A DNA stretch of 57,626 nt from Coriobacteriia bacterium (lineage in GTDB: Bacteria > Actinomycetota > Coriobacteriia > Anaerosomatales > SLCP01). The position numbers and the translations under genes are program-made. Each line of letters begins with the position of its first letter. Positions within the stretch are counted from its first letter, which is position 1. Below the pieces are notes generated by a model. It was not told the origin of the DNA, ran no database searches, and saw nothing but the letters and a program-made list of their open reading frames with translations. The stretch is from the NCBI GenBank assembly GCA_014859265.1, contig JACUUN010000005.1, forward strand, positions 1 through 57,626, given 5' to 3'. Below, piece by piece: positions 3,471 through 57,439 of the stretch.

Positions 3471-3499
3471 TTGACGCTCCCGGAGGGTGGCTGTAACGT
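3471..3499 (+). promoter_or_regulatory. Sigma70-type promoter for the intergenic RNA
   Basis: TTGACG-17 nt-TAACGT. Confidence 0.75.
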
Positions 3500-3505
3500 T
3501 GCAGC

Positions 3506-40184: not shown

Positions 40185-41624
40185 TCAGGCGAAGGTCAGG
40201 ACCCGCAGAACCGACTGCAGACCGAGGACCAGTGGCACGATCCCGATCGCGACAATCAGCACCGCGACGGTTGCGATCGCCACCTCGGATCCGCGGTCGG
40301 TGGTCCCCTCGTCACCCGGCTCGTGCGATACCGTTGGAGTCTCGAAGTATAGAGACCTCAGGACCGCACCGTAATACCCGAACGATACGACCGATGCGAT
40401 GACCCCGAAGAGCGCCAGCCACCAGTACCCTGCCGAGACCGCAACCCCGAAAACCATGAACTTGCCCCAGAAGCCGGCCGTCAGCGGCATACCGATAAGT
40501 GAGAACATCGTGACAGTCACCGCGGCTCCGAGCATCGGGCGCTCCCGCCCCAGACCCGCAAGGGCCGCGATGGTGCCGTCCCATCCCGGCCTGGCGGCCC
40601 GGAATGCACCTGCTGCGAGGAACGCACCGGCCGCAGCTAGCGCATACGCCGTAACTAGCAGAGCAGCTGAGGTCATTGCTGGCGCGCCAAGCGCAACGCC
40701 GACGAGTGCGTATCCGATCTGGGCGACACCCGAATACGCGAGCATCCGTGTGTACGAACGCTGAAGCAGACCGCCGCTGGCTCCGAACGCCATCGAGAGA
40801 ATCGCCAGGAGCCCGAACACCCACAGCTGGTACGTGGTGTCCAGGCCGGCGAACACCGAGCGTGAGAAGAGGATGATCATGGCGACTACCGCCGCCAACT
40901 TCGGTATGCCGGCCAGAAGCGCTGCGAAGTGCGAGGGAGCCGATTCGAACGCGTCCAGCGCCCAGGAGTGGAACGGGAACGCCCCTACCTTGTAGGCGAG
41001 CGCAACGGCGATAAGCACGAAGGCCGTGGTGACCGGCGAACCTGTTTCCGTGCCCATGACGCCACGTATCCATACGTAGGAGGTGGAACCACCGTAGAGC
41101 CCGAAGAGAATCGCCAGACCGAGAACGAAGAACCCAGTCGCGATCGCGCCCTGAACGAAGTACTTCACCGCAGCTTCGATTGCCGGGGCCGTGCGCGCGG
41201 ACCAAACTAACGCATACGCGCAGAGCGCTAGCCCTTCGAGGGCGATCAGAAGTACAAGGATGTCCGCTGCAACCGCAATGGACGCGGCAGCTGCGACGGA
41301 GACCGTGGCAAGCGCAGCCAGTCCTCCACCGGAGCTAGCCTCTGTGAGCGGGCGCCATGAACCCAGCAAGACCAGAGCGCCGATGGCACAGATAATGCCG
41401 ACGATCGCGGAGAACCCTGTCCCTGACAGCACTACGTCACCGGTCAATTCAGGCGCGCGGGCACTGCCCGCAAATGCGAGGACCGACCCGGCTACGAGCC
41501 CGGCAACCGCGGCCGCTATGGCAAGACCCCGGCGCTCGAACGCGTCGAATGCGACGGCGGCGGCGGCCCCGACGACGCATACGATCTGGGGCGCGAACGC
41601 GACCAGCATGCTGACCTCGGTCAC
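40185..41624 (-). CDS. nuoN: Complex I subunit N
   Basis: 'IEAAVKYF', 'YKVGAFPFHSW', 'RMLAYSGVAQIGY', 'GMPLTAGFWGK'. Confidence 0.93.
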   Translation of the reverse strand: MTEVSMLVAFAPQIVCVVGAAAAVAFDAFERRGLAIAAAVAGLVAGSVLAFAGSARAPELTGDVVLSGTGFSAIVGIICAIGALVLLGSWRPLTEASSGGGLAALATVSVAAAASIAVAADILVLLIALEGLALCAYALVWSARTAPAIEAAVKYFVQGAIATGFFVLGLAILFGLYGGSTSYVWIRGVMGTETGSPVTTAFVLIAVALAYKVGAFPFHSWALDAFESAPSHFAALLAGIPKLAAVVAMIILFSRSVFAGLDTTYQLWVFGLLAILSMAFGASGGLLQRSYTRMLAYSGVAQIGYALVGVALGAPAMTSAALLVTAYALAAAGAFLAAGAFRAARPGWDGTIAALAGLGRERPMLGAAVTVTMFSLIGMPLTAGFWGKFMVFGVAVSAGYWWLALFGVIASVVSFGYYGAVLRSLYFETPTVSHEPGDEGTTDRGSEVAIATVAVLIVAIGIVPLVLGLQSVLRVLTFA

Positions 41625-41625
41625 G

Positions 41626-43074
41626 TTAGGCCCCCGTTCCGACGACGAGCGCGAGCGCGGCGAAGACGTCGCCGGTCATCGCGAGGACGAGCCTCGGCCA
41701 CACGCCGAGGACGATGACTGCTGCAACGAGCAGCCCGACCGGAATCAAGTCCCCGGCGGTCAGGTCGCGAATCCCTGCCCACTCTCCCGCCACCTCGCCG
41801 TGGAGGACCTCTCTAACCGCACGCAGGTTGTACGCGGCGGCGAGAACGATGCCGGGCATGACAAGGGTGATCGGCCACGACCACGCACCGAATCCCTCGA
41901 TCACCGCGAGAAACTCACCGGGAAAACCCGACAGGCCCGGAAGGCCGAGACTCGCGAGCGCCGCGAAGGTTAGAGCCGTCCCCCACCGGGGGGTCAGAGA
42001 GCCGAGGCCGCCGAACCGGGCGATCTCCCGCGTGTGGGCGCGGTCGTACAACTGGCCGACCAGCAGGAAGAGCAGTGGCGCGATAGCCCCGTGGCTCACC
42101 ATAACAAGCATGGCTGCCGAGAAGCCCCGCTCCCCACCGGTCGAGAGCGCGAGCAAAACGAAGCCCATGTGCGCGACGCTCGAATATGCTACGAGGCGCT
42201 TCAAATCGGCCTGGACCAACGCGACCGCGGCTCCGTATACGATTCCCACGCCGCCGAGCACTGCGAAGATCCAGGACACCTCGGCAAAGACACCAGGAGC
42301 TATCGGAATGGCGAGACGCAGCAGACCGTAGCCGCCCATCTTCAGAAGCGCCCCGGCCAGCAGTATCGAGCCTGCGGTTGGCGCTTCAACATGGGCGTCG
42401 GGAAGCCAGGTGTGCAGCGGAAACGCTGGAAGCTTCACCAGCATGCCGGCAGCGAGCAGCCAGAAGACCACCATCGGATCCGGAAGGGCGACCCGGCCGG
42501 CAACGAGCGAGTCTATGCTCGTGGCACCGATGGTGAAGATCGCCATCAGGATGCCGACCAGCATGAGCGCGCTTCCCGCGAACGTATAGACGAAGAACTT
42601 CATCGCAGCGTGTCTGCGGTCCTCATGTCCCCAGACACCGATCAGGAAGTACATCGGGATGAGCACGGCCTCCCAGAACACATAGAGAAGCACGACGTCT
42701 GCCGCAAGGAAGACTCCGGCGAGCGCCGCCTGGAGTCCGAGGAGCAGCGCGTGGTGCACCGCAGGACGTTCCTCGACCTTCCACGAGGCCAGCACCGCAA
42801 CGGGGCCGAGCAGCGCGGTGAGTACGAGTAGAGGTGCCGAAAGCCCGTCGATGCGCAAATCCCAGAAGGGCACAGACTCCTGCGCGACGCGCACGCCGGA
42901 AAGCGCCTGCCCGGTGAAGATCCCTTCTCCCGCCAGCGAGAGCAAGGCTGCAGCGAACCCCAGGGTGGCCGCAAGGGCCACCACACGCGCAAATGACGGA
43001 GCGAACCTGCCCGCAACCAGGCAGGCCACGACTCCGGCGAGCGGCACCAGTATGAGCAGCTCAAGTGCGATCAT
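41626..43074 (-). CDS. nuoM: Complex I subunit M
   Basis: 'DGLS', 'FWEAVLIPMYFLIG.WG', 'PLHTWLPDAHVEAPT', 'DLKRLVAYSS', 'GLPGLSGFPGEF'; ATG overlaps the nuoL stop. Confidence 0.95.
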   Translation of the reverse strand: MIALELLILVPLAGVVACLVAGRFAPSFARVVALAATLGFAAALLSLAGEGIFTGQALSGVRVAQESVPFWDLRIDGLSAPLLVLTALLGPVAVLASWKVEERPAVHHALLLGLQAALAGVFLAADVVLLYVFWEAVLIPMYFLIGVWGHEDRRHAAMKFFVYTFAGSALMLVGILMAIFTIGATSIDSLVAGRVALPDPMVVFWLLAAGMLVKLPAFPLHTWLPDAHVEAPTAGSILLAGALLKMGGYGLLRLAIPIAPGVFAEVSWIFAVLGGVGIVYGAAVALVQADLKRLVAYSSVAHMGFVLLALSTGGERGFSAAMLVMVSHGAIAPLLFLLVGQLYDRAHTREIARFGGLGSLTPRWGTALTFAALASLGLPGLSGFPGEFLAVIEGFGAWSWPITLVMPGIVLAAAYNLRAVREVLHGEVAGEWAGIRDLTAGDLIPVGLLVAAVIVLGVWPRLVLAMTGDVFAALALVVGTGA

Positions 43075-44900
43075 CACAACCCCCGTCCAACGTATGAAAC
43101 GAGGGCGAGCAACGCTACGGCCCCGGCGCCAAGCATCGTGGCGTACCACTGGGCGTCCCCGGACTGAAGCGAGGTGAACACCCGTCCAAGCCCACGGGCA
43201 CCCGGGGCGGCACCTTCCGCGATTCCGTCGACGACCCTGCGATCGACGAAGTCGTAGAGCACACGGGAAACACCGATGACCGGAGACAGGACGGCCCGCT
43301 CGACCAGCGTGTCGGCACCCCAACCGGTCCGCATGAGCGACGCGAGTCGCTCGAAGGATGGGCGCGCGAAAGCGGGGTGGTCGATACCGGCGACCTTCCA
43401 GCCCGCAAGCAGTCCGGCGACAGCAAACAGGGTCGACGCGAGCGCTATCCTGAGATCGAGAGAGCCTTGATGCGCTCCGACTACGTCTGCGACCGACGCT
43501 GCCGCAAAGCCCAGCCCGCCAGCGAACGCAGCGAGGATGATGAGTGGGATCCGCATGCTCCACCCGCCCTCGTGGGGATGGCCGCTCCCGCGATACACAT
43601 CGAAGAACGCGAGCCGGGTGGTGCGGGCGATATAGAACGCTGTCATCAGGCTCGCACCGAAGAGGATGGCGGCCCACATCGGCTCGGCACCGGCGACATC
43701 ATGAAGTATCTCGTCTTTGCTGAAGAAACCTGCGAGCGGCGGCAGTCCCGCAAGTGCTCCCGCGCCGATCAGCCACGTTGTGCCGGTCACCGGCATCTTA
43801 CGGAACAGCCCACCCATCTCCTCGAGCTCCTGCGTGCCCGAGCCATGGATCACGCTTCCGGAGCCCAGGAACAGCAATGCCTTGAAGGCGGCGTGCGTCA
43901 CCAAATGGAAGATCGCAGCGCCCCACGCGCCGACACCGAGCGCGGCGAACATGAAGCCGAGCTGACTGATGGTGGAGTACGCGAGGACCTTCTTGATGTC
44001 CGACTGTACGAGAGCGGCCGCGGCGGCACCGACGGCGGTCACGCCGCCGATGGCGAGCGTCACGGCAAGTGCCTCGCTCGAAAGAGAGAAAAGCGGCCAC
44101 GCGCGAGCAACGAGGAAGACGCCGGCCGCCACCATAGTGGCCGCGTGGATGAGCGCCGAGACTGTAGTCGGGCCTTCCATGGCATCGGGCAGCCATATCT
44201 GCAGCGGGAACTGTGCCGACTTACCGACCGCGCCCACCAGAAGGAGCAGGCTCGCAGCGGTGACGATGCCGGGCGCCAGCGAGGGGGCCGCCGCGAACAC
44301 CGCCGAGTACGAGAGATCACCGACCTCACGCCAGAGCAGGGCCAGCGCGAGGAGCAGACCGACGTCGCCGACCCGCGTGGTGAGGAAGGCCTTGACCGCA
44401 GCCTTGGCGGCAGCGGGACGGGTGAACCAGAATCCGATCAACAGGTACGAGCACGTTCCGACCAGCTCCCAGCCGATGAACAACCCTACCAGCCCGTCGG
44501 CCACGACGAGCATGCTCATCGCCGCCGTGAAGAGACAGAGTGCCGCGTAGTAACGAGGCAAGCCGTTCTCACCGTGCATGTAGCCGGCGGAGAACATCAC
44601 CACGAGCGCGGCGACAAGGCCGACCACGACGAGCATCACCGCGGTCAGGCCATCGACGGCCCAACCCACCGTGAGGCCGCCGGCACCGCCGATTGTGAGC
44701 CATTCGACAGAGTCGGCGCGAGCGGAGCCGTGGACGCCCTCCACCAGCGAGAGTGCTCCGTAGGCTAGGACCCACACGGGAGCGACAATGGCTACCGCGG
44801 GGGTCAGGCGTCCGAGGAGGCGCCCTGATACGGCAACCACCACCGCGAGGGCCAGCGGAAGCATGACGACCGACCAGCCGGAGTCGAGGAAGCCGCTCAT
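43074..44900 (-). CDS. nuoL: Complex I subunit L
   Basis: 'GWELVG.CSYLLIGFW', 'GKSAQFPL..WLPDAMEGPT', 'DIKKVLAYSTISQLG', 'HAAFKALLFL', 'GFFSKD'. Confidence 0.96.
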   Translation of the reverse strand: MSGFLDSGWSVVMLPLALAVVVAVSGRLLGRLTPAVAIVAPVWVLAYGALSLVEGVHGSARADSVEWLTIGGAGGLTVGWAVDGLTAVMLVVVGLVAALVVMFSAGYMHGENGLPRYYAALCLFTAAMSMLVVADGLVGLFIGWELVGTCSYLLIGFWFTRPAAAKAAVKAFLTTRVGDVGLLLALALLWREVGDLSYSAVFAAAPSLAPGIVTAASLLLLVGAVGKSAQFPLQIWLPDAMEGPTTVSALIHAATMVAAGVFLVARAWPLFSLSSEALAVTLAIGGVTAVGAAAAALVQSDIKKVLAYSTISQLGFMFAALGVGAWGAAIFHLVTHAAFKALLFLGSGSVIHGSGTQELEEMGGLFRKMPVTGTTWLIGAGALAGLPPLAGFFSKDEILHDVAGAEPMWAAILFGASLMTAFYIARTTRLAFFDVYRGSGHPHEGGWSMRIPLIILAAFAGGLGFAAASVADVVGAHQGSLDLRIALASTLFAVAGLLAGWKVAGIDHPAFARPSFERLASLMRTGWGADTLVERAVLSPVIGVSRVLYDFVDRRVVDGIAEGAAPGARGLGRVFTSLQSGDAQWYATMLGAGAVALLALVSYVGRGL

Positions 44901-44901
44901 C

Positions 44902-45207
44902 TCAGCCTTTCACCTCCGCGAGCTCGTCGACGCGCGTCGTCTTGAACCGCCGGGCAACCGAGATCACGAGAGCGAGCCCGACCGCAGCCTCGGCGGCAGC
45001 AAGCACGATCACCATGACGCCTGTCGCCTCTACGGCACCCTCGTGCGCACCAACGGGCGTGCCTGCCGCGGCAAGACCGACAAGGAGTAGGGTCGCGGAG
45101 CCGAGCATCACCTCTATGCTCGCGAGAATCGCCACGAGGTCACGGCGTGTAAGAACCCCATACAGGCCCAGCGAGAACAGCCCTACCGTGATGACCAGCA
45201 GGCTCAT
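44902..45207 (-). CDS. nuoK: Complex I subunit K
   Basis: 'GLYGVLTRR', 'IEVML', 'AAAEAAVGLA'. Confidence 0.94.
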   Translation of the reverse strand: MSLLVITVGLFSLGLYGVLTRRDLVAILASIEVMLGSATLLLVGLAAAGTPVGAHEGAVEATGVMVIVLAAAEAAVGLALVISVARRFKTTRVDELAEVKG

Positions 45208-45698
45208 CGGTCATCACCTCCAAGTATCACGACGACAGAGACCAAAACCGCCAGCAGTAGGACGCCACCCATCTCGAAATGAGTCAGCATCGGTCCGAGG
45301 AATGCCTCGGTGAGTTCGGCAGGCCCCGACTCTATCCCCTGGTTGACCGAGTCGGGCACAACGCCGCGAAGTGCCATGACGACCATGAAGAACAGCCCGC
45401 CTGCGACAGCGAGTGCTGCGACGTCATGCCGTGTCTCCAGAAGCGGGGATCCGTCGGGTGATCGGTGCACCAGCATGATGGCGAAGATCATCAGCACGAG
45501 CACGCCACCGATGTAGACGAACAATTGGACCACACCGAGGAAGGTCGCACCCCAGTACACGAAGAATCCGGCGACAGCGAGAAGGAAGGCGCCAAGGCCC
45601 ATCGCCATGCGGCTCACATCACGCGCGAACACCGTCACGACCGCGCCGGAGACGGCGACAACGCCAAGGAGGGCGAAGATGATGCTCGCAAGGGTCAC
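45204..45698 (-). CDS. nuoJ: Complex I subunit J
   Basis: 'FLGVVQLFVYIGGVLVLMIFAIML', 'FEMGGVLLL'. Confidence 0.93.
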   Translation of the reverse strand: MTLASIIFALLGVVAVSGAVVTVFARDVSRMAMGLGAFLLAVAGFFVYWGATFLGVVQLFVYIGGVLVLMIFAIMLVHRSPDGSPLLETRHDVAALAVAGGLFFMVVMALRGVVPDSVNQGIESGPAELTEAFLGPMLTHFEMGGVLLLAVLVSVVVILGGDDR

Positions 45699-47785
45699 CG
45701 GGGCACCTCCCGGACGGCTTCATGCACACCATCGCGCCCGGTTGCCCGCGTGCCCGCGCCATCCCGTAGCATCTCGTGGCGGTCGAAGATGGTCAGGTCG
45801 CGGTGGAAGAAGCTCAACTCGTACTGCCCGGTATGGGTCAGCGCATTGGTGGGACACTGCGGGGCACACAGGCCGCAGAAGCAGCACTTCGAGAGGTCGA
45901 GTTCGTAGTGGGTCACCCGGCGCTCGCCAGGGTCGTCCACGCGCTCTACCTCGATCGCGTAGTCGGGACACGTACGCGCGCAGAACGTGCAGCCCACGCA
46001 CACTTCGGACTGGCACCGCAGACAGCGCATCGCCTCGTTCAAGGCCTCCAGGTGGGTGATACCGAGCTCTATGTGGCGGAAGTCGGTCGCGCGCTCCTCG
46101 GGTTTCGCCATCGGCATCGTGACCCGGCGGCGGTTCGCTTCCACGCCATCGATATGAGCCACCTGGTACTTGTCGTAGACGGGAACGGGACGGGCCACGC
46201 GGCCCTCGGCAAGATCCAGCCCCTCCAGATAGCGGTGAATCGAGGTTGCCGCTTCATGACCGGTGGCGATAGACGCAATGGCACTTCCGGGGCCGGTCAC
46301 AACCTCGCCAGAGGCGAAGACGCCCTCTTGAGCGGTGGTGAACAGAGTGCCATCGACCGGAAGCAGCCCACGCTCCGTGAGTGTCAGATCAGAGCCCGCC
46401 ACCACATCCGCGAGTACCGGACCCTGGCCGACCGAGAAGACCACCATGTCGACTGCCACCTCGGTGTACTCGTCACCAAACTGAGGCGCAAAACGGCCGG
46501 ATGCGTCGAATACCGAGATACACTCGCGCATGCGCATGCCCCGGACCTTGCCCTCGTCGTCGACAAGGACCTCCTCCGGACCGAGCGAGCACATTGCGAT
46601 GACGCCCTCGTCGAGCGCCTCCTCGATCTCCCACGGGTGACAGGGCATCTCTTCTTCCCCTTCGAGGCACGCCAGGCGGACCTCGGTAGCTCCGGTGCGA
46701 AGCGCACAGCGGGCAACGTCGACCGCGACGTTGCCGCCGCCGATCACCAGCACGCGCTTGCCCTGCACGCCCGGGTCGCCCTTCCAGTTCGCGTCGCGCA
46801 GGAACGGCAGCGCCCCGGTCACGCCCTCGGCGGTATGGCCAGGAACCGGGATGATTCGGCTCTCCTGCAGGCCGACGGCGATGAGCACAGCGTCATACTC
46901 GCCTAGAAGGTAGTCGATCGGAACGTCCTTGCCGACCTCAACGCCAAGCTTGAACTCCATGCCGAGAGTCACCAGGTTGTCGATCTCGTCGTGGAGCACC
47001 TCCCGGGGTAGTCGGTACGAGGGCACTCCGGAGTACAGGGCCCCACCCGGCTTCTTCTCCTTTTCGTACACCGAGACCGAGTAGCCGAGCTTCATCAGGT
47101 CGTATGCGGCGGCAAGTCCGGATGGTCCGGAGCCGATGATGGCAATCCGCCGGTTGCGCGTACGCTCCAGCGGCTCGAGCCGCTCGCTCGCCACCTTGAC
47201 GTACTCCTCGTACGCGTGACGGTGGAGCGGCCGGATAGCGATCGGCTCGTCGTAGTAGTTGCGACGGCATGCCGTCTCGCACGGATGGTGGCAGATACGA
47301 CCGAGGACGCCGGGAAGGATGTTTCGGTCCCTGACGAGCTCGTATGCCTCGGCGGGCTTGCCCTCGCCAAGGTAGTATCCCTGGCCGCGAGCGTCGACAT
47401 TTGCCGGGCAGTTGCCGACACACGGGGGCAGCCGGTCGGCACGGTAGAGCCCATCGATGAGAGCGTTGTACTCGGGCGGCGTATCTTCGATGATCGGGAT
47501 GTCGTCGAGACCGAGAATGCCGCGGAGCCGCAGGGCGCCGCGCCACCTCGGTGATAGCGCGACCTTCTCGTGCGGGTAGCGCAGAGTCGTTGCCGGACCG
47601 AGCGCCTTCCTGCCCGTGATGCCCAGGCCGGTCAGCAGCGATTGCCATCGTGCGAAGAAGCCGGCGACACCGCCAGGGAAGTCGTCGGTGACGTTCACCG
47701 TCACGGGGACGACATGAGGAGCCTGCGCGGGCGCACCGATTTCGTGGTTACGGGTATCGGTGTTGTTGTGTGAGTTCACAGCCAT
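45695..47785 (-). CDS. nuoI: NuoI carrying an inserted GltD/NfnL/DsrL-family FAD-FeS NAD(P)H oxidoreductase module (696 aa)
   Basis: NuoI N-part 'LLTGLGITG...TLRYPHEK..LSPRWRG'; insert 'PPCVGNCP', 'GRICHHPCETACRR', 'IIGSGPSGL', 'GGGNVAVD', 'EAMRCLRC'; NuoI C-part 'CVGCTFCARTCP...YELDLSKCCFCGLCAPQCPTNAL...YELS'; sits between nuoH and nuoJ. Confidence 0.9.
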   Translation of the reverse strand: MAVNSHNNTDTRNHEIGAPAQAPHVVPVTVNVTDDFPGGVAGFFARWQSLLTGLGITGRKALGPATTLRYPHEKVALSPRWRGALRLRGILGLDDIPIIEDTPPEYNALIDGLYRADRLPPCVGNCPANVDARGQGYYLGEGKPAEAYELVRDRNILPGVLGRICHHPCETACRRNYYDEPIAIRPLHRHAYEEYVKVASERLEPLERTRNRRIAIIGSGPSGLAAAYDLMKLGYSVSVYEKEKKPGGALYSGVPSYRLPREVLHDEIDNLVTLGMEFKLGVEVGKDVPIDYLLGEYDAVLIAVGLQESRIIPVPGHTAEGVTGALPFLRDANWKGDPGVQGKRVLVIGGGNVAVDVARCALRTGATEVRLACLEGEEEMPCHPWEIEEALDEGVIAMCSLGPEEVLVDDEGKVRGMRMRECISVFDASGRFAPQFGDEYTEVAVDMVVFSVGQGPVLADVVAGSDLTLTERGLLPVDGTLFTTAQEGVFASGEVVTGPGSAIASIATGHEAATSIHRYLEGLDLAEGRVARPVPVYDKYQVAHIDGVEANRRRVTMPMAKPEERATDFRHIELGITHLEALNEAMRCLRCQSEVCVGCTFCARTCPDYAIEVERVDDPGERRVTHYELDLSKCCFCGLCAPQCPTNALTHTGQYELSFFHRDLTIFDRHEMLRDGAGTRATGRDGVHEAVREVPR

Positions 47786-48726
47786 GGGATCACCGCCCCG
47801 ACGATCACAAGTTGCACGAGCGCCATCGGCGTCAGCACTTTCCACGCGGTGCCCATCAGCTGATCGGGGCGCATGCGCGGGTACGTCCACTTCACCCACA
47901 TCATCGCCGTGGCAATGAGGGTAGCCTTCGCTATCAACACGATAACCCCGAGCGCGCCGGGCAGGCCGAGGTAGCCCCCGAAGAAGAACGCAGCCCCGAA
48001 GAGCGACGCAGCGACCAGGCCACCATACTCAGCCATCATGAAGATCGCCCAGCGGATGCCCGAGTAGTCGGCGAAGTAGCCCGCTACCAGCTCCGACTCT
48101 GCCTCGGGGAGGTCGAACGGACCGCGGTTGACCTCAGCGACCGATGAGATGAAGTAGACGACGAACGCGATGAGAGTGAGCGGAATCCACCACCACCGCC
48201 ACTCGTCCATGATGTCGAGCGGGCGCATCGATCCCGCAAGCAGCACGAACGGCAGCACCGAGAGCGTGCGCGGCAGCTCGTAGGAGATCATCTGAGCCGC
48301 GGCCCTCAAGCCCCCGATGGTGGCGTACGTGTTGCGCGACGCCCAGCCGGCGAGCAGGACTCCGATGACGGAAATCGCCGGGACCGCCATGAAGAAGAGC
48401 ACGCCGACGCTCGTGTCCAGCGGTGCAAAGCCGGCGGCGTATGGAATGACCGCGAGTGACATCGCGATTGGCGCGAACACGATGAGCGGCGCGATCCGGA
48501 AGATGCGCACATCGGCCGCGCGCGGGGTGATGTCCTCTTTGAGCACGAGCTTCACGGTGTCGGCGAGCGTCTGCAGAAGCCCGAACGGGCCGAGCTCCTG
48601 GGGCCCGATACGCATCTGGATGCGCGCGGACACCTTCCGCTCGCCCCACACCCCGATCAGCGCGGCCACCGCTATGACAAGGCCGGCCGCCAGGCCGTAG
48701 AAGGCACCCCATGCCAGGCCGCTCAC
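47776..48726 (-). CDS. nuoH: Complex I subunit H
   Basis: 'ERKVSARIQMRIGP', 'GLLQTLADTVKL..KED', 'RAAAQMISYE', 'RGPFDLPEAESELVAG', 'PRMRPDQ'. Confidence 0.96.
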   Translation of the reverse strand: MSGLAWGAFYGLAAGLVIAVAALIGVWGERKVSARIQMRIGPQELGPFGLLQTLADTVKLVLKEDITPRAADVRIFRIAPLIVFAPIAMSLAVIPYAAGFAPLDTSVGVLFFMAVPAISVIGVLLAGWASRNTYATIGGLRAAAQMISYELPRTLSVLPFVLLAGSMRPLDIMDEWRWWWIPLTLIAFVVYFISSVAEVNRGPFDLPEAESELVAGYFADYSGIRWAIFMMAEYGGLVAASLFGAAFFFGGYLGLPGALGVIVLIAKATLIATAMMWVKWTYPRMRPDQLMGTAWKVLTPMALVQLVIVGAVIPWL

Positions 48727-49868
48727 CGATCCACCTCCCCGAACACCGGATCGAGGCTTCCCAGGATGACGACGAGGTCGGAAAGCATGTGGCCCTCGGC
48801 CAGCATCGGGAGGAGCGCGAGATTGCAGAACGCCGGCGAGCGCACCTTCATCCGGTAGGGGCGCACCGATCCGTCGGAGACGAGGTATACGCCGAGAGAC
48901 CCGCGCGCAGACTCGATGTGGTCGTAGGCGTCACCGGGACGCGGCGCAAGCAGCCTCGGCATGCCGGACGCGTTAATGGGTCCGGGCTCCATCTGTGCCA
49001 GGGCCTGCTCGATGATGCGACAGGACTCGTAGCACTCGAAGAGCCTGACGCGCGCACGGTCGTAGCAGTCGCCGTTGGTGCCGGTGGGCACGTCGAAATC
49101 GAAACGCGGATAGACCGAGTAGGTGTCGTGTTTGCGGAGGTCCCAGTTCACGCCGGAGCCGCGCGCGACAGGTCCCGAGGCGCCCCAGGCCACCGCGTCC
49201 TCGGCAGAGAGGACGCCAACGCCCTTCATGCGATCTCGGGCGATGACATTCCCGAAGTAGAGGGCGTCGATATCGTCGAGCGCGGTGCGATGGTCGCGGC
49301 AGAACGCGAGCACCGACTCCGCCCACCCCTCGGGGATGTCGAAGCTCACGCCACCGGGACGGACGTAGTTGTACGTGAGCCGGGCGCCGCACAACTCCTC
49401 GAATGCTTCGACGATCCTCTCGCGCTGGTCGAACGCGTAGATGAACATCGTGAATGCCCCGGTGTCGGCGGCGGCAGAACCGAGGGACATCATGTGACTC
49501 GCGATGCGTTGCATTTCGCATACGATCACCCGCAGGTACTCCGCACGCTCGGGTACCCGGATACCGGCAAGCCGCTCCACGGCACGGCAGTACGCCCAGT
49601 TGGCGTACATCGAGCCGACGTAGTCGAGCCGGTCGGTAAGCGGTACCACCTGCAGGTATGTGCGGTTCTCGGCCATCTTCTCGATTCCGCGGTGCAGGTA
49701 GCCGATGACCGGCTCGGCCTTGGTGACGACCTCGCCGTCGAGACGCACGATCACCCGGCAAACGCCGTGAGTCGAAGGGTGGGAAGGACCGATGTTGACG
49801 ACGAGCTCGTCAACGCTGGGCTCGACCTCGTTCACGAAGCACTCGTCCTGCCCTATCTCTGCGGCCAT
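48723..49868 (-). CDS. nuoD: Complex I subunit D
   Basis: 'NIGPSHPSTHGV', 'GYLHRGIEK', 'RLDY', 'ESARG', 'DPVFGEVDR'; no NiFe CxxC motifs. Confidence 0.96.
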   Translation of the reverse strand: MAAEIGQDECFVNEVEPSVDELVVNIGPSHPSTHGVCRVIVRLDGEVVTKAEPVIGYLHRGIEKMAENRTYLQVVPLTDRLDYVGSMYANWAYCRAVERLAGIRVPERAEYLRVIVCEMQRIASHMMSLGSAAADTGAFTMFIYAFDQRERIVEAFEELCGARLTYNYVRPGGVSFDIPEGWAESVLAFCRDHRTALDDIDALYFGNVIARDRMKGVGVLSAEDAVAWGASGPVARGSGVNWDLRKHDTYSVYPRFDFDVPTGTNGDCYDRARVRLFECYESCRIIEQALAQMEPGPINASGMPRLLAPRPGDAYDHIESARGSLGVYLVSDGSVRPYRMKVRSPAFCNLALLPMLAEGHMLSDLVVILGSLDPVFGEVDR

Positions 49869-49881
49869 GGTCCCACCCCCT

Positions 49882-50343
49882 TCAGATGTAGTCCGGACGG
49901 CGAATGACGGAATCGTCCCGGTAGTCCTTGCGCAGCGGGTAGCCCTCCCATTCCTCGGGAAGGAGGATTCTGCGCAGGTCAGGGTGGCCTTCGAACACGA
50001 TGCCGAACATGTCGTAGACCTCTCGCTCCTGCCAAAGCGCGGCGGGCCAGAGATCGACAAGCGAGCGAGCCAAGGGGTTGTCACGCTCGACGTTGCACTT
50101 GAGGAAGAGTGCTGCAGACATCGAACGCGAATGAAGCCTGTAGACCAGCTCGAAGTACGTGAGACGGTCGACAGCCGTCGCCATGCCGAGCCGGTCGAAG
50201 CCAAGCTCTTTCAGGTTGTCGGCCGCATCGAAGAGGCGATCGCAGTCGACAGAGAGAACCCCGTCGCCGAACTCTATCGAGAACAGCGGGCACAGATCAG
50301 GATATGTGGCACAGAGATGCTCGCGAAGTTCGGTGATGTTCAG
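49882..50343 (-). CDS. nuoC: Complex I subunit C (probable CTG start)
   Basis: 'WQEREVYDMFGIVFEGHPDLRRILLPEEWEGYPLRKDY'; frame open from CTG 50343, with no ATG/GTG/TTG until 50184. Confidence 0.88.
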   Translation of the reverse strand: MNITELREHLCATYPDLCPLFSIEFGDGVLSVDCDRLFDAADNLKELGFDRLGMATAVDRLTYFELVYRLHSRSMSAALFLKCNVERDNPLARSLVDLWPAALWQEREVYDMFGIVFEGHPDLRRILLPEEWEGYPLRKDYRDDSVIRRPDYI

Positions 50344-50942
50344 CGGGACTCACCCCCTGTGTCCGGGCCGCTTCCACCGAGGCGGGCACCGAGGGAGATA
50401 TCGCCGGGCATCGGCAGGGTGTATGAGCCCTCTCGACGGCGATCCGGAGCGATAGACTCGGTCGCGATCCGCTCGCGGAGTCGCAACACCGCATCCTGGA
50501 GGGACTCGGGACGCGGAGGACATCCTGCGAGGTAGACATCAACCGGAAGGAACTCATCGATGCCGCGGACGACGGAGTACGTGTCGTAGTAGAAGATGCC
50601 GCCCGAGATGGTGCAGTTGCCCATCGCTATGACCCACTTGGGGTCGGCCATCTGCTCGTAGAGGCGCTTGACTGCAGGCGCCATCTTCTTCGTGATCGTC
50701 CCGGCGACGATCATGACGTCGGTATGGCGCGGATCGGGACGGGGGAACGTGCCGTGACGGTCGAAATCGAACTTGTTGAACGAGGCGGCTATAAGTTCCA
50801 TAGCACAGCATGCTGTACCCATCGGCATCGCCCAGAGCGACTTGCCCCGTGCCCAGTCAACCAGCGAATCGACAGTGGACAGGATGATCCCTCCCCCTTG
50901 CCCCCCCTCGAGAGCCTCGCCGAGGCGATCGATCAGCGCCAC
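50340..50942 (-). CDS. nuoB: Complex I subunit B
   Basis: 'SLW...GTACCAMEL', 'VAGTITKKMAP', 'YEQMADPKWVIAMGNC', 'VDVYLAGCPPRPE'. Confidence 0.96.
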   Translation of the reverse strand: MALIDRLGEALEGGQGGGIILSTVDSLVDWARGKSLWAMPMGTACCAMELIAASFNKFDFDRHGTFPRPDPRHTDVMIVAGTITKKMAPAVKRLYEQMADPKWVIAMGNCTISGGIFYYDTYSVVRGIDEFLPVDVYLAGCPPRPESLQDAVLRLRERIATESIAPDRRREGSYTLPMPGDISLGARLGGSGPDTGGESR

Positions 50943-51298
50943 TGCAGGACCCCCTTGCGCCACGCGTAGAGAAGGCCAAGAGTAAGCAGACCGACGAAGA
51001 TGCCGACGGCGATGACGCCCCCGGGCGACCCCCGTAGGCCGCTTGCGACGGCGAAGAGCATCGCCGCCTCGGCATCGAAGATCACCAGCAGCAGGGCTAT
51101 GGCGGCGAAACGCAACCTGACCGGCGCCCAGGGCATCCCGGCCTGCGGCATGCCACATTCATAGGGTTCGACCTTCTCGGCCGTGGGGTTTCGCGGTGAG
51201 AGAACGGTGTTAGCGAGGAAGACGACAAGGATGAAGGCGACGGCGGCCGCTGCCAGCCCCACCACGAACAGAACGCTTTCCGCATACGCACCCTGCAT
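50933..51298 (-). CDS. nuoA: Complex I subunit A
   Basis: 'KVEPYECG', 'VIFDAE', 'YAWRKGVLQW'. Confidence 0.95.
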   Translation of the reverse strand: MQGAYAESVLFVVGLAAAAVAFILVVFLANTVLSPRNPTAEKVEPYECGMPQAGMPWAPVRLRFAAIALLLVIFDAEAAMLFAVASGLRGSPGGVIAVGIFVGLLTLGLLYAWRKGVLQWR

Positions 51299-53563: not shown

Positions 53564-54913
53564 GTGAGCGCCAAGGGCAAGATCGTCGTGATAGGGTCCG
53601 GAGCGGCAGGGACCGGAGCGGCACGCACGCTGGCTGCGGCAGGTTGGGACACCACCGTGGTCGAGCGCGACCGCGTGGGAGGCACCTGCCTGTGGCGTGG
53701 TTGCATGCCGAAGAAGGCCCTCTACAACTCCGCACGCGCCCGACGCAATGCTGACCGAGCGGAGATGTTCGGCCTCGAGGGTGCCCGGGGTTTCGACTGG
53801 CAAAGCGTGCTGGCGTGGAAGTGGCATAGCCAGGAGACGTACGCGGGCGACCAGGAGGCCGGATTTACGGACCGGGGCATCCGGCTTGTGAAGGACGATG
53901 CCCGCTTCGTGTCGCCTGACGCTGTCGAGGTCGCTGGGGAACGTGTGTCCTTCGATCACGCGATCATCGCGACTGGCTCCCGGCCTGTCATTCCGCCCAT
54001 CACCGGTATCGAACTCGCCGACACCAGCACCGGCGCGCTCGGTTATCCTGAGCCACCTTCGTCGCTGCTGGTAGTCGGTGGAGGGTTCATCGGTCTGGAG
54101 CTCGGGGCGATCTACGCCTCCTTCGGCACTGAAGTCACCATCATTACCAGCGCCGTTCGACCGCTCGAGATGCTAGATGAGGAGATTTCCGCAATCCCAC
54201 TCCGCCGGTTGGAGCGACTCGGGGTGGCATTCCATACTTCCTGTCGGCTCAAGAGTCTCTCCGGCTCTCCCGGCGCGGTCACAGCGCGCTTCTCCGATGC
54301 TGCCGGAGCGTCACACGAGCGCACATGGGAGCGAGTGCTCGTCGCAGTCGGTCGCAAACCCTCCGTTGACGATCTCGATCTGGCAGCCGCGGGCGTGGAG
54401 GTCGACGGCCGTGGGGGAATCGTGCTCGACACGTCCCATCGCACCACAAATCCCCGCGTGTGGGTGGCAGGCGATGCGGCCGGTGGCATGATGCAGACCC
54501 CGATCGCTAACTACCAGGGGCGGACGGTGGCGGCATCCATCGACTCGGGCGCCGCAAGCGAACTGGACGACTCAATGGTCCCGACGTGCCTATTCACAAC
54601 ACCACAGGTGGCCCAGGTCGGACTCACTGAGACACAGGCACACGCATCTGGGATCGAGATCAGCATCGGACGCGCATCCTTCGAGTTCCTGGGTGCTGCA
54701 GTAATCGAGGATGAGCGCGATGGCCTGGTGAAACTGTTGTTCGCCGAGGACGACGGCAGGCTCGTTGGAGCGCATATCGCCGGACCGGCCGCGAGCGACC
54801 TCATCTACGCGGCGGCGGTTGCCATGCGATGCGGTGCCACTCGGGACACCCTGCGCGCGACCATCGGTATCCACCCGGCGTTTTGCGAGGCGCTCAACTG
54901 GGCCGCGGGGTAA
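53564..54913 (+). CDS. Class I pyridine nucleotide-disulfide oxidoreductase (LpdA/Gor-like)
   Basis: 'GSGAAG', 'GGTCLWRGCMPKK', 'GGGFIGLE', C-terminal 'HPAFCE'. Confidence 0.9.
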   Translation: MSAKGKIVVIGSGAAGTGAARTLAAAGWDTTVVERDRVGGTCLWRGCMPKKALYNSARARRNADRAEMFGLEGARGFDWQSVLAWKWHSQETYAGDQEAGFTDRGIRLVKDDARFVSPDAVEVAGERVSFDHAIIATGSRPVIPPITGIELADTSTGALGYPEPPSSLLVVGGGFIGLELGAIYASFGTEVTIITSAVRPLEMLDEEISAIPLRRLERLGVAFHTSCRLKSLSGSPGAVTARFSDAAGASHERTWERVLVAVGRKPSVDDLDLAAAGVEVDGRGGIVLDTSHRTTNPRVWVAGDAAGGMMQTPIANYQGRTVAASIDSGAASELDDSMVPTCLFTTPQVAQVGLTETQAHASGIEISIGRASFEFLGAAVIEDERDGLVKLLFAEDDGRLVGAHIAGPAASDLIYAAAVAMRCGATRDTLRATIGIHPAFCEALNWAAG

Positions 54914-54916
54914 ACG

Positions 54917-54944
54917 CGACCTTGAGGCTCATGCCTCAAGGTCG
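54917..54944. terminator. Hairpin between convergent genes
   Basis: CGACCTTGAGGC-TCAT-GCCTCAAGGTCG 12-bp perfect stem. Confidence 0.65.
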
Positions 54945-57439
54945 GCGCATCTCTCGACTTCACACGAGAGCAAGTCGAACAGCCGGTCGAACTCCCGGTC
55001 GTTCTCGACGACCGGCTCTGGCTGCTCGGGCACGTGCGTCAGCCTGTGCAGCTTGCACGAACCCCCTCTGTGGCACGGCTTACTCGGTCCCGGTTCGATC
55101 GTTGTGTTGCCTCCAGCTAGAACTTCTTCGATCTCAAATGCGGAACATGGATGCGAGAACAGATAACCCTGCACATGGTCGCAGCCCGCATGTCTCAGGT
55201 ACTCGAGATGACATGGTTTCTCGACGCCCTCGGCTACGGTACGCAAGTGGAGCTTGGATGCCAGAACGAGGATCGTATCGATGATTGGATGTGAATCTGA
55301 CTCCGCGCACAGGTCCGAGACAAAGGACCGGTCTATCTTCAGGATGCTGATGGGCAGTCCCTGCAGACGTTCAAGCGAGGAGTGACCGGTCCCGAAGTCG
55401 TCCAGCGCAAGCCCGACACCCATCGCTCTCAGTTGCTCGAACACCGGCGAGACCATATCGATCTCCCGCATCATCGCTGTCTCTGTGATCTCCAGCTCGA
55501 GATCTTCAGGCTTCAGGCCGGTATGGGCTAGAACCTCAGAAACCTCGTGGATGAGATCCCCGTCAATCATCTGGACCGCCGAAAGGTTCACCGCGACCCG
55601 GGGCACAGCGATGCCCGCCTGCCTCCACCGAGCGAGTGTCCCACACGCCTCGAAGAGGATCCACCGGCCCATTGGAACGATGAGACCACTCTCCTCGGCG
55701 ATATCCATGAACTCCTCCGGGCCAAGTACACCCCTTGTGGGGTGTCGCCAGCGCACCAACGCTTCGACGCCAGCAAGCCTACTGCTGTCGGCCGTGATGA
55801 TGGTCTGGTAGTGGATCTCGAGCTCTCCCTTGTCGACGGCATCGGCGAGCTCGTTCTTTGTCCGGAAGCGCTCCGAGATCGCCGTCTCCATGCTCGGCTC
55901 GTACACCTCGAAGCGGTCACCGCCTGCCTTCTTCGCGACATACATCGCGCGATCCGCCCGCTTCAGTGCCTCACTCGCCTGCATCCCCCTCTCGCAGTGG
56001 CAGATTCCAATGCTCGCGGATGGCCGCACGGTAAGCCCGCCTATCTCCATCGTCTCCGAAGAGAACTCCAGCAGCCGCAAGGCGATGTCCTCCGCGTGCG
56101 CCTTCGCTGTGACATCCGGCACTATGAGGACAAACTCATCGCCGCCAACCCGCCCGAGCGTGTCGCCATCGCGTGTCACCCAGCTGAGCCGGTCGCCCAT
56201 GATCTTGATCAGCTGGTCACCCGCGTCATGGCCCACCGTGTCGTTCACCGCCTTGAGATTATCGATGTCCACGTAGATGACGGCGAGTCCTTCGGCATCT
56301 CCCCGGTCCAGGTGAGCAAGGGCGCCGTTCAGCCGCTCGCTAACGAGGCGCCTGTTCGGAAGGCCCGTAAGCGGATCATCGTAGGCCATCTGGGAGACGA
56401 GCTCCTCCGCCTGACGACGCGCGGAGACGTCTCGCGAGACGTTCATAATCGCCGGGCCGCCGTCGAACACCACGAATTGGCTCCTCACTTCGACGGGTAG
56501 ACGCTGACCGCCCTTGCAGACGTTCATCACCTCGTAGAGCGCGGTGCCGGACTCGACAACGGTTCGCCGTTGGTTCTCGCGTGCATCCTCCTGCGACTCC
56601 GGCGCGATCCACGAGAAGGGCTCCAGCTCCAGAAACTCCTCGCGCGTGTAGCCGCGCATCTCGTGTGCCGCCTGGTTGAGATAGAGGATCCTACCATCCG
56701 GGCGAGTCACGATGACCGAATCGTGTACCGAGTCGAGCAGATGGGACTCGGAGCGCAGGCTCTCCTCTGTGCGCCGCCGCTCTGTCACGTCCTCCCCGTA
56801 CGAGATCACCTGCAGGACATCACCGGACTCGTTGAGCGCCGCCGAGCGGCTCCACCGCACAATCCGCTCCCCGATGCACGTGCGGACAGGGTACTCAAGG
56901 GTGGCACCAACCTGGCCGCGGCTCTCACAGAACCGCTCGAATTCGTCGCGCGCGTAGATGTCGGCTGCCTGTGTGCCCCAGAGTTCGAACGCGTCCTTGC
57001 CTACGACATCGTCCTCGGCGACGCCGAGCAGTTCGAGGCCGTACCGGTTCATATGCCTGACCGTGCCATCGGGGTCCAGCGTCGCCACCACAGCTGCAAC
57101 ACCATCGGCGTAGGTGCTGCGAACTGACTCGATCCGAGCGAGCAGCTCTGACGTTCGGCGAGCGTCGAAGGCCTCTGCACGGAAAGCGAGGGCGCCCCAC
57201 ACCACGCCGGTCGCCTGTACTACGCGCAGAAAAGCAAGGACATCGGCTTGATTCGTAACGCTTCGCCCCAGGAGGACGAGCGACGCGGCGATGCCTGCGA
57301 CACACGCGGCAGCAAAGGCGACAGCAGCCCTGCGCCACCGTCCCCGCACGGACGATGCGCGGAGGGCAAACACGATGACTGCGAGGGCGACCGCATGTAT
57401 GAGGAGTGCAGTCCAGTGCAGAAGCGCTTGTCCGGGCAT
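54929..57439 (-). CDS. Membrane-anchored PAS-PAS-GGDEF-EAL c-di-GMP enzyme
   Basis: Three N-terminal TM segments; two PAS domains ('EDVTERR', 'RDVSARR'); 'DPLTGLPNR', 'RDGD..GGDEF', 'EALVRW', 'EITE', 'DDFGTG', 'EGVE', 'QGY'. Confidence 0.95.
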   Translation of the reverse strand: MPGQALLHWTALLIHAVALAVIVFALRASSVRGRWRRAAVAFAAACVAGIAASLVLLGRSVTNQADVLAFLRVVQATGVVWGALAFRAEAFDARRTSELLARIESVRSTYADGVAAVVATLDPDGTVRHMNRYGLELLGVAEDDVVGKDAFELWGTQAADIYARDEFERFCESRGQVGATLEYPVRTCIGERIVRWSRSAALNESGDVLQVISYGEDVTERRRTEESLRSESHLLDSVHDSVIVTRPDGRILYLNQAAHEMRGYTREEFLELEPFSWIAPESQEDARENQRRTVVESGTALYEVMNVCKGGQRLPVEVRSQFVVFDGGPAIMNVSRDVSARRQAEELVSQMAYDDPLTGLPNRRLVSERLNGALAHLDRGDAEGLAVIYVDIDNLKAVNDTVGHDAGDQLIKIMGDRLSWVTRDGDTLGRVGGDEFVLIVPDVTAKAHAEDIALRLLEFSSETMEIGGLTVRPSASIGICHCERGMQASEALKRADRAMYVAKKAGGDRFEVYEPSMETAISERFRTKNELADAVDKGELEIHYQTIITADSSRLAGVEALVRWRHPTRGVLGPEEFMDIAEESGLIVPMGRWILFEACGTLARWRQAGIAVPRVAVNLSAVQMIDGDLIHEVSEVLAHTGLKPEDLELEITETAMMREIDMVSPVFEQLRAMGVGLALDDFGTGHSSLERLQGLPISILKIDRSFVSDLCAESDSHPIIDTILVLASKLHLRTVAEGVEKPCHLEYLRHAGCDHVQGYLFSHPCSAFEIEEVLAGGNTTIEPGPSKPCHRGGSCKLHRLTHVPEQPEPVVENDREFDRLFDLLSCEVERCADLEA

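Follow-up and report, generated by a model that had tools for sequence, protein, structure and literature searches.

The nuoI gene of a Coriobacteriia bacterium contig (GenBank assembly GCA_014859265.1, contig JACUUN010000005.1, forward strand) was confirmed to encode a NuoI protein that is split around an iron-sulphur (Fe-S) flavoprotein of the NfnB/StnC/GltD type, within an eleven-subunit complex I (nuo) operon. The window, i.e. the whole stretch of DNA that was analysed, is the entire contig C62 (57,626 bases, 64.7% G+C) of a metagenome-assembled genome (MAG) of 2.34 Mb in 255 contigs. The fused gene lies at 45695..47785 on the minus strand, and its start codon ATG overlaps the stop codon of nuoH. 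The frame is open over 696 codons, in agreement with a preliminary description, made from the sequence alone, in which the gene in the nuoI position was said to encode 696 amino acids (protein P0002).

The preliminary description also had the protein start and end as NuoI on either side of the insert, and two comparisons bore this out. The NuoI profile TIGR01971 matched P0002 in two pieces, with model positions 1-41 falling on window positions 47507-47629 and model positions 40-121 on 45770-46012. In BLASTP against the ordinary NuoI encoded by the same genome (contig C136), residues 47-88 and 596-658 of P0002 aligned to consecutive parts of that protein, from which it follows that about 505 residues were inserted. 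They replace roughly ten residues of the ordinary NuoI, directly before the first CxxCxxCxxxCP motif. The NuoI N-terminal segment (residues ~47-88; 47522..47647, minus strand) comprises an amphipathic helix followed by T-x-x-Y-P-x-E ... R-x-R-G. An AlphaFold2 (AF2) model of P0002 (mean predicted local distance difference test, pLDDT, 83.3; predicted template modelling score, pTM, 0.82) has a helix at residues 40-62, and T67, Y70, P71, R82 and G83 of the segment were invariant in 12/12 distant fused forms. The NuoI ferredoxin core and tail (residues 592-696; 45698..46012, minus strand) contain the cysteines C596/599/602/606 and C634/637/640/644; the 27-residue spacer between the two motifs and the C-terminal tail are both of NuoI type. 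This second NuoI half covers residues ~592-671, and solved NuoI/TYKY chains matched residues 585-678 (e.g. 8qby_I at 4.2e-20). TIGR01971 was also matched by 12/12 diverse fused forms at E ≤ 1e-5.

The inserted module (residues ~89-591; 46013..47521, minus strand), delimited by Pfam, PDB sequence matches and Foldseek, consists of an Fe-S helical domain, a flavin adenine dinucleotide (FAD) domain, an NAD(P) domain, a linker and an RCLRC motif. The Pfam domains of P0002 are Fer4_20 at 120-195, Pyr_redox_2 at 213-509 and Fer4_7 (dicluster ferredoxin) at 596-648. Pyr_redox_2 is covered at profile positions 2-291 of 291, which corresponds to an FAD Rossmann fold in which a second Rossmann fold, for the nucleotide, is embedded. 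The FAD motif GSGPSG (residues 218-223; 47117..47134, minus strand) and the nucleotide motif GGGNVA (349-354; 46661..46741, minus strand, when taken through the end of strand beta2 at L374-E375) are present as first described, and were invariant or nearly so in the 180 members of a close-family alignment. A match to PRK12771 (NF009410) spans residues 116-650 of P0002 and positions 44-561 of the 566 in the profile.

Searches with the insert against solved proteins returned 9bov_A (9.7e-95), 8oh5_C (StnC; 7.1e-87) and 4ylf_B (NfnB; 7.5e-77), the relatives being, in order, NfnA of Caldicellulosiruptor NfnABC (9bov_A), Sporomusa ovata StnC (8oh5_C), Thermococcus NfnA (9n5u_A), and then NfnB/NfnL and GltD. 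The top entries of a Foldseek search with the AF2 model agreed with the sequence search, and NfnB and GltD were recovered at template modelling (TM) scores of 0.76-0.78, normalised to target length. The earlier placement in a glutamate synthase beta/NfnL/DsrL family thus holds for the general type, but the closest relatives are StnC and NfnA of NfnABC rather than glutamate synthase beta or DsrL.

The cluster ligands of the insert were mapped onto those of NfnB which, according to the available text of PMC7596348, are C39, C42, C47 and C100 for the distal cluster and C51, C90, C96 and E117 for the proximal one. Residues 120-190 of P0002 align to NfnB 45-119 and, residue by residue, to StnC 94-170. 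The Fer4_20 region (residues 120-195; 47201..47428, minus strand) carries C122, C126, C165, C169, C173 and H188, that is, six of the eight NfnB-type ligands (five Cys and a His), and no Cys upstream of C122 corresponds to C39/C42. All of its Cys were invariant, in 180/180 sequences of the close family and in 12/12 distant fused forms. On the basis of the aligned ranges and the Cys spacing, with ligand numbering from the accessible parts of PMC7596348 and PMC10482914, C122 and C173 were assigned as putative ligands of the distal cluster and C126, C165 and C169 as those of the proximal cluster. H188 aligns with StnC K170 and NfnB E117, the non-Cys ligand of the proximal cluster; among the 12 diverse forms, eight have His and four Lys at this site.

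The sequence 'EA-x-RCLRC', the usual beginning of Fer4_20, instead follows the flavoprotein domain in P0002 (RCLRC, residues 587-591; 46013..46027, minus strand), and its C588 and C591, which may supply the two missing ligands of the distal cluster, are present in 179/180 close and 12/12 diverse sequences. Altogether, 15 Cys were invariant across the 12 fused forms. The insert is a complete flavoprotein, as originally stated; the complete canonical GltD-type Fe-S motif that had been described with it is not present, since only five Cys and a His are found in place and the N-terminal CxxC is displaced to residues 587-591. Four residues separate C591 from C596, the first NuoI Cys, which we take to belong to the entry cluster N6a by comparison with 2x[4Fe-4S] ferredoxin folds and Thermus Nqo9. 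With so short a gap, the distal cluster would be held close to N6a. Ligand mapping onto NfnB and StnC reproduced the wire proposed at the outset, from FAD through two [4Fe-4S] clusters to the NuoI clusters, and the predicted cofactor inventory of P0002 is FAD, two GltD-type clusters and two NuoI clusters. Two other cysteines, C399 and C422 (window ~46520-46591), lie in the NAD-binding domain and are kept in 180 and 179 of the 180 close-family sequences, respectively. They were considered as extra cluster ligands and rejected, as they are not conserved in the distant fused forms.

The nucleotide specificity was predicted from the end of strand beta2. In the sections of PMC7596348 available, Y310-R311-R312 (YRR) of NfnB are described as holding the 2'-phosphate of NADPH, and DsrL enzymes without YRR as using NAD(H) in assays. 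YRR is not present in P0002, which has C-L-E-G at 373-376 instead, and the Glu at E375 was found in 180/180 close relatives. Among the diverse fused forms, L-E occurs in 6/12 and YRR in 6/12. Given the L-E in place of YRR and the DsrL precedent, the nucleotide of the window lineage is probably NADH and that of the fused forms with YRR probably NADPH. The NAD(P)H input suggested previously can probably be narrowed to NADH in the lineage of the window.

The fusion was recovered independently of the assembly in which it was noticed. A contig from a separate study spans positions 45400-48000 with 21 substitutions and no gaps or indels. In the second study's runs, the ATG at window position 47785 reads GTG on the coding strand, so that a start codon is kept in place. 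Short extra pieces that matched at ~46600-46760 were discarded as variants of the fused gene; they are conserved-motif matches from other organisms. A word-indexed search yielded more than 120 full-length homologues with 68-99% identity from other assemblies. Together, the independent gap-free contig and these homologues exclude an assembly chimera, which the preliminary description had named as a possible source of error.

Full-length fused protein was identified in 80 of the 201 genomes of the class, and in two more it is cut by contig ends. Within the class, the gene was found in 82/93 genomes of the order of the source organism, compared to 0/108 genomes of the other orders. When 1.84 billion representatives were searched exhaustively with HMMER, further fused forms came to light, down to 37% identity. 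Twelve of the fused forms (35-65% identity) made up the diverse-form alignment, in which the NuoI N-terminal motif and all cluster Cys are kept, while the close-family alignment comprised 180 sequences. Among the names given for the sources of distant fused forms are Candidatus Aquicultor, Candidatus Subteraquimicrobiales and 'Actinobacteria', as well as Anaerolineae and Firmicutes for single MAGs. When 401 Actinomycetota genomes were searched with a profile, the full-length fused gene was detected in four genomes from the order and in 19 from other classes, representing at least 11 family codes; one more fused gene was cut by a contig end. The fused NuoI is thus a family found across several classes of anaerobic Actinomycetota.

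The surroundings of the gene were analysed in 14 loci (12 from other classes and two from the same order), searched with the Nuo proteins of the window. In all 14 the fused gene lies within a nuo cluster, directly after nuoH in 10 cases and directly after nuoD in three, with the upstream region cut by a contig end in the remaining one; the architecture is thus found in nuo contexts across genomes, where the preliminary description had suggested looking for it. In the three loci with the gene after nuoD (L114 of genome G283, L118 of G260 and L119 of G218), the order is D-fused-H-J-K, or nuoH is placed ~3 kb away on the opposite strand, which indicates that gene order around the fusion is not fixed. 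Metagenome contigs with a form of 40% identity show the order nuoB-C-D-H-fused-J-K-L. In genome G502, which is 100% complete, the sole NuoH gene sits in the fused operon, and the fused protein must therefore be the NuoI of its only complex I. In genome G287 there is an additional NuoH, and a NuoF-like gene lies ~3.4 kb from it on the same strand; the two may be part of a canonical nuo cluster.

To address the origin of the insert, a tree was constructed from the GltD cores of 35 fused and 77 non-fused rows (quick search, LG+G4), the non-fused rows being every third of 227 candidates plus the paralogue encoded in the source genome. The fused forms were scattered among the non-fused ones, with six state changes, at least four of which are forced by starred branches. 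An approximately unbiased (AU) test of the monophyly of the fused forms gave a borderline p = 0.049, too near the threshold to choose between a single insertion and multiple ones. Repeated insertion of one NAD(P)H cassette at the same site in NuoI is conceivable, and the cassette would then be a mobile input module of complex I. A scan of the genome collection with the distant-fused alignment returned at least 600 stretches, mainly ordinary GltD-like proteins; the best 80 almost all start at query position ~57-61.

The fused gene belongs to a compact minus-strand operon extending from ~51298 to 40185, in the order nuoABCDH-I*-JKLMN (I* being the fused gene), in which all eleven subunits are encoded. 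No nuoE, nuoF or nuoG was found in it by Pfam analysis of the operon genes, in line with the earlier account of the operon. The operon begins with nuoA (50933..51298; Oxidored_q4, 4.7e-25), whose ATG at 51298 is preceded by the ribosome-binding site GGGGGA, and continues with nuoB (50340..50942; Oxidored_q6, 3.1e-28), for which the GTG at 50942 was taken as the start. For the nuoC gene (49882..50343; frame translation, Complex1_30kDa, 129.9 bits), no start codon of the types ATG, GTG or TTG is available; the sole plausible one is a CTG overlapping the nuoB stop (cTGa), located after GGGGGTGAG, and this is why nuoC was missed in the list of open reading frames. It is followed by nuoD (48723..49868; Complex1_49kDa, 5.6e-94) and nuoH (47776..48726; NADHdh, 4e-102). 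Downstream of the fused gene are nuoJ (45204..45698; Oxidored_q3), nuoK (44902..45207; Oxidored_q2), nuoL (43074..44900; Proton_antipo_M and Proton_antipo_N), nuoM (41626..43074; Proton_antipo_M), with the ATG at 43074 that overlaps the nuoL stop taken as its start, and nuoN (40185..41624; Proton_antipo_M). All of these genes are on the minus strand.

NuoB contains the tandem CC, GNC and GCPP cysteines, which we take to be the ligands of cluster N2, and NuoD contains GPSHPSTHG and DRLDY, presumably the positions of the quinone-site His and Tyr by analogy with Thermus Nqo4 His38/Tyr87. The membrane subunits belong to the Nuo families Oxidored_q2, q3 and q4, together with three Proton_antipo_M proteins. 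A complex of the Mbx/Mbs type was considered and rejected, because the membrane subunits are of Nuo type and NuoD has His and Tyr, not Cys, at the pocket. The search for an NfnA-like partner (FNR-like, [2Fe-2S], second FAD), which was confined to the operon and the ~3 kb flanking it on each side and did not extend to the rest of the genome, found none. The flanking genes are unrelated to the operon and encode an ABC-F ATPase, a metalloenzyme-superfamily protein and a nucleoside phosphorylase. Further upstream are a flavoprotein disulfide reductase of the dihydrolipoamide dehydrogenase type (53564-54913, plus strand; Pyr_redox_2 and Pyr_redox_dim) and a PAS-PAS-GGDEF-EAL signalling protein (54929-57439, minus strand).

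The rest of the genome (97.7% complete, 4.23% contamination) was inspected for other elements of electron transport. Two NuoF-like genes are present: one is RnfC in an rnf cluster and the other encodes a NuoF-like subunit beside a NuoE-like one and a molybdopterin formate dehydrogenase. The check for nuoEFG recommended in the preliminary description therefore returned NuoF-like genes just in Rnf and formate dehydrogenase contexts. The rnf cluster on contig C24 (L012:7685-12810, minus strand) looks complete (RnfC, D, G, an Rnf-Nqr membrane subunit and an RnfB-like protein) and is followed by heptaprenyl diphosphate synthase component I. On contig C150 (L013:1854-7457, minus strand) the NuoE-like, NuoF-like and formate dehydrogenase genes stand together, adjoined by pterin-binding and CooC-like genes; the formate dehydrogenase frame is split at ~3488-3501, possibly by a selenocysteine codon. 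The genome also carries Wood-Ljungdahl genes, namely a carbon monoxide dehydrogenase/acetyl-CoA synthase (CODH/ACS) cluster and the pterin-binding and CooC-like genes near formate dehydrogenase. MqnC (472.6 bits) and MqnE (498.9 bits), both over the cut-off, an MqnA/D-family protein and a UbiA prenyltransferase are encoded as well, which makes menaquinone synthesis plausible. The futalosine cluster itself is located on contig C183 (L029:2723-10142, minus strand) and includes MqnE, the MqnA/D-family protein, MqnC, an MTAP-like phosphorylase and an aminofutalosine-deaminase-like hydrolase; its presence is worth noting, given that cultured members of the order reportedly have no detectable quinones.

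Complex I is, to our knowledge, able to accept NADH solely via the NuoEFG module, which is based on flavin mononucleotide (FMN). For complex I cores that lack NuoEFG, the donors assigned are ferredoxin, F420H2 or unknown. FpoF of the F420H2 dehydrogenase and the NdhS/NdhV/NdhO ferredoxin site of cyanobacterial NDH-1 are alternative input devices for such eleven-subunit cores; they are separate subunits that serve F420H2 or ferredoxin as donors, and none is inserted within NuoI. P0002 is predicted to do the same job as NuoEFG, that is, to oxidize NADH and deliver single electrons via Fe-S clusters to N6a of NuoI. In contrast to NuoEFG, which has three separate subunits with approximately seven clusters and FMN in NuoF, it would do so with one inserted domain of unrelated fold, holding two clusters and an FAD in the two-Rossmann GltD fold.

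StnC (8OH5) and NfnA of NfnABC (9BOV, 9N5U) resemble P0002 in having a GltD/NfnB-type domain with FAD and 2x[4Fe-4S] inserted in a complex-I-type Fe-S protein, and in the permuted RCLxC motif after the flavoprotein domain. StnC further shares the position of a non-Cys ligand of the proximal cluster (K170; H188 in P0002). However, the hosts of these insertions are soluble NuoG-like proteins, whereas that of P0002 is the NuoI of a membrane complex. StnC is partnered by a bifurcating StnAB/HydBC-type module, and not by NuoB/D and quinone, and it has YRR and uses NADPH, where P0002 has L-E. In S. ovata StnC, as the accessible text of PMC10482914 describes it, a GltD-like NADPH domain (102-565) is inserted in a NuoG-like protein, and the FAD of this domain is non-bifurcating, with electrons passing linearly via its two clusters into the NuoG-type chain.

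A further relevant case was reported by Degli Esposti in 2015 (PMC4758237, in the portion available): in the Mbx-like operons found in Thermotoga and proteobacteria, NuoI is replaced by a GltD-related flavoprotein. This too is a GltD-family flavoprotein at the NuoI position, in a membrane complex related to complex I, and it has been proposed to handle NAD(P)(H). As judged from the published description alone, it is a substitution in a non-quinone complex of Mbx/Mrp type with NAD(P)+ as acceptor, while in the window NuoI is kept, split around the insert, and the operon is of Nuo type with a quinone-type NuoD. The stand-alone PRK12771-type paralogue encoded by the source genome on contig C65 (L028:1212-3209, minus strand) is 39% identical over residues 121-662 and likewise has a truncated Fer4_20, a linker, RCLxC and then a 2x[4Fe-4S] domain. 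It differs in having neither the NuoI N-terminal segment nor the NuoI tail, in its short ferredoxin spacer, in keeping YRR and in carrying an MvhD/FlpD domain. This paralogue directly adjoins CODH/ACS genes (CdhD-like, ACS beta and CooS-like), a Wood-Ljungdahl context.

We consider it somewhat probable, with considerable reserve, that the complex acts as a proton-pumping NADH:menaquinone oxidoreductase, in which the FAD domain built into NuoI would replace the FMN-based NuoEFG as N-module. The insertion point lies between the membrane-interface segment at the NuoI N-terminus and the first cluster-binding motif. NADH would reduce the FAD of the insert, from which electrons would pass to the proximal cluster (C126, C165, C169 and H188) and then to the distal cluster (C122, C173 and probably C588 and C591), tied by the four-residue spacer to the first ligand of N6a. 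The path would continue through N6a and N6b to N2 in NuoB and on to the quinone pocket of NuoD/NuoH, where menaquinone would probably be reduced, driving proton pumping by NuoL/M/N/H/A/J/K. Those parts of the original interpretation that computation could address were all supported, whereas cofactor occupancy, preference for NADH, acceptor and direction of electron flow are predictions from the sequence.

Several observations count against this proposal. The whole-protein TIGR01971 score of P0002 is 93 bits, below the curated cut-off of 113.05 (the model being interrupted by ~505 residues), and the PRK12771 score of 445 bits is below its cut-off of 516. It is motif logic alone that would have C588 and C591 complete the distal cluster as a permuted CxxC. 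NuoEFG linked to a nuo cluster was not found in the 255-contig MAG, a fragmented assembly in which absence is not provable. The genome also has a second eleven-subunit nuo operon on contig C136 (L011:215-8397), in which nuoA, B, C, D, H, an ordinary I, J, L and M were seen and which is likewise without nuoEFG, so the fused complex is not the sole complex I. Moreover, according to the available text of PMC9686372, neither of the first two cultured members of the order had detectable respiratory quinones, so that in those strains, at least, the acceptor need not be a quinone.

Electrons might also flow in the reverse direction, a reading we regard as unlikely though worth serious attention: menaquinol, e.g. 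from a membrane hydrogenase or formate dehydrogenase, would reduce NAD+ (or, in the YRR forms, NADP+ to give NADPH) at the cost of proton-motive force, and would thus feed reduced nicotinamide to the Wood-Ljungdahl pathway and biosynthesis during lithotrophic growth. Complex I is reversible, and the CODH/ACS cluster and the pterin-binding and CooC-like genes of that pathway are present in the genome. In addition, cultured relatives grow on H2 or formate, and DsrL-type relatives catalyse both directions (PMC9686372 and PMC7596348, respectively, in the parts available). The sequence itself carries no signal of direction, however, and the Rnf complex of the genome can already link ferredoxin and NAD. 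It is improbable that the complex works as a quinone-independent, ion-translocating ferredoxin:NAD(P)+ oxidoreductase with the flavoprotein as electron exit rather than entry. Such a role has been proposed for the GltD-like subunit of Mbx-like operons (PMC4758237); it would fit the undetected quinones in the two cultured strains and the general view, as in the proposal of PMC9686372, that eleven-subunit complexes are fed by ferredoxin (both sources in their available portions). Against it, the operon is of Nuo type (NuoA, J, K, L, M, N) and not Mrp/Mbx-type, the quinone-site His/Tyr of NuoD and the tandem-Cys N2 site of NuoB are kept, the futalosine pathway is encoded and Rnf is already present. 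The two clusters of the insert also map in one line to NuoI, leaving no evident entry for ferredoxin.

Bifurcation at the NfnB-like FAD, by which NAD(P)H electrons would be split between a high-potential branch through NuoI, N2 and quinone and low-potential ferredoxin, seems to us barely credible. The insert is indeed of NfnB lineage, and in NfnAB the FAD of that lineage is bifurcating, but the closest relatives of the insert are StnC and NfnA of NfnABC, and the FAD of the StnC GltD domain has lost bifurcation (PMC10482914, available text, for both enzymes). The operon and its flanks encode neither an NfnA-like partner nor a second branch of cofactors, and both clusters are needed for a single path to N6a. 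A membrane-bound bifurcating or confurcating complex I that couples quinone reduction, ferredoxin reduction and proton pumping in one enzyme is very improbable. There is next to no probability that the gene is an artefact, whether an assembly chimera or a decaying, functionless pseudogene fusion, in view of the indel-free independent contig with its 21 substitutions, the >120 full-length homologues of 68-99% identity, the occurrence in 82/93 genomes of the order and 19 genomes of other classes, and the invariance of all 15 cluster-ligand Cys down to 35% identity.

A literature search, which left out most subscription journals and supplements, found no description of a NuoI-GltD/NfnB fusion in a Nuo-type complex I. 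The nearest precedents are the insertion of GltD in the NuoG-like StnC and the GltD-related substitute for NuoI in Mbx-like operons. For a cultured Anaerosomatales strain, the available part of PMC9686372 lists nine accessions as 'NuoACDHJKLM', without NuoI, and proposes ferredoxin as the donor. The unnamed protein at the nuo locus of that strain is presumably the fused NuoI. Homologues, where named, are annotated as 'FAD-dependent oxidoreductase [Coriobacteriia bacterium]' or 'glutamate synthase beta subunit-like'. With such misleading gene names and a nuo locus listed without NuoI, metabolic reconstructions of these lineages probably misread the complex.

If the proposed NADH:menaquinone oxidoreductase activity is correct, the FAD-based NAD(P)H dehydrogenase within NuoI would constitute a second, independent NADH input for complex I, and would explain how NADH (NADPH in the YRR forms) is coupled to the membrane in anaerobic Actinomycetota that lack NuoEFG. 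The occurrence of a GltD cassette both in the NuoG-like StnC and in NuoI bears on modular evolution, and the fused family offers natural NADH and NADPH variants for the study of nucleotide specificity. The existence of cultured members of the order makes the idea directly testable.

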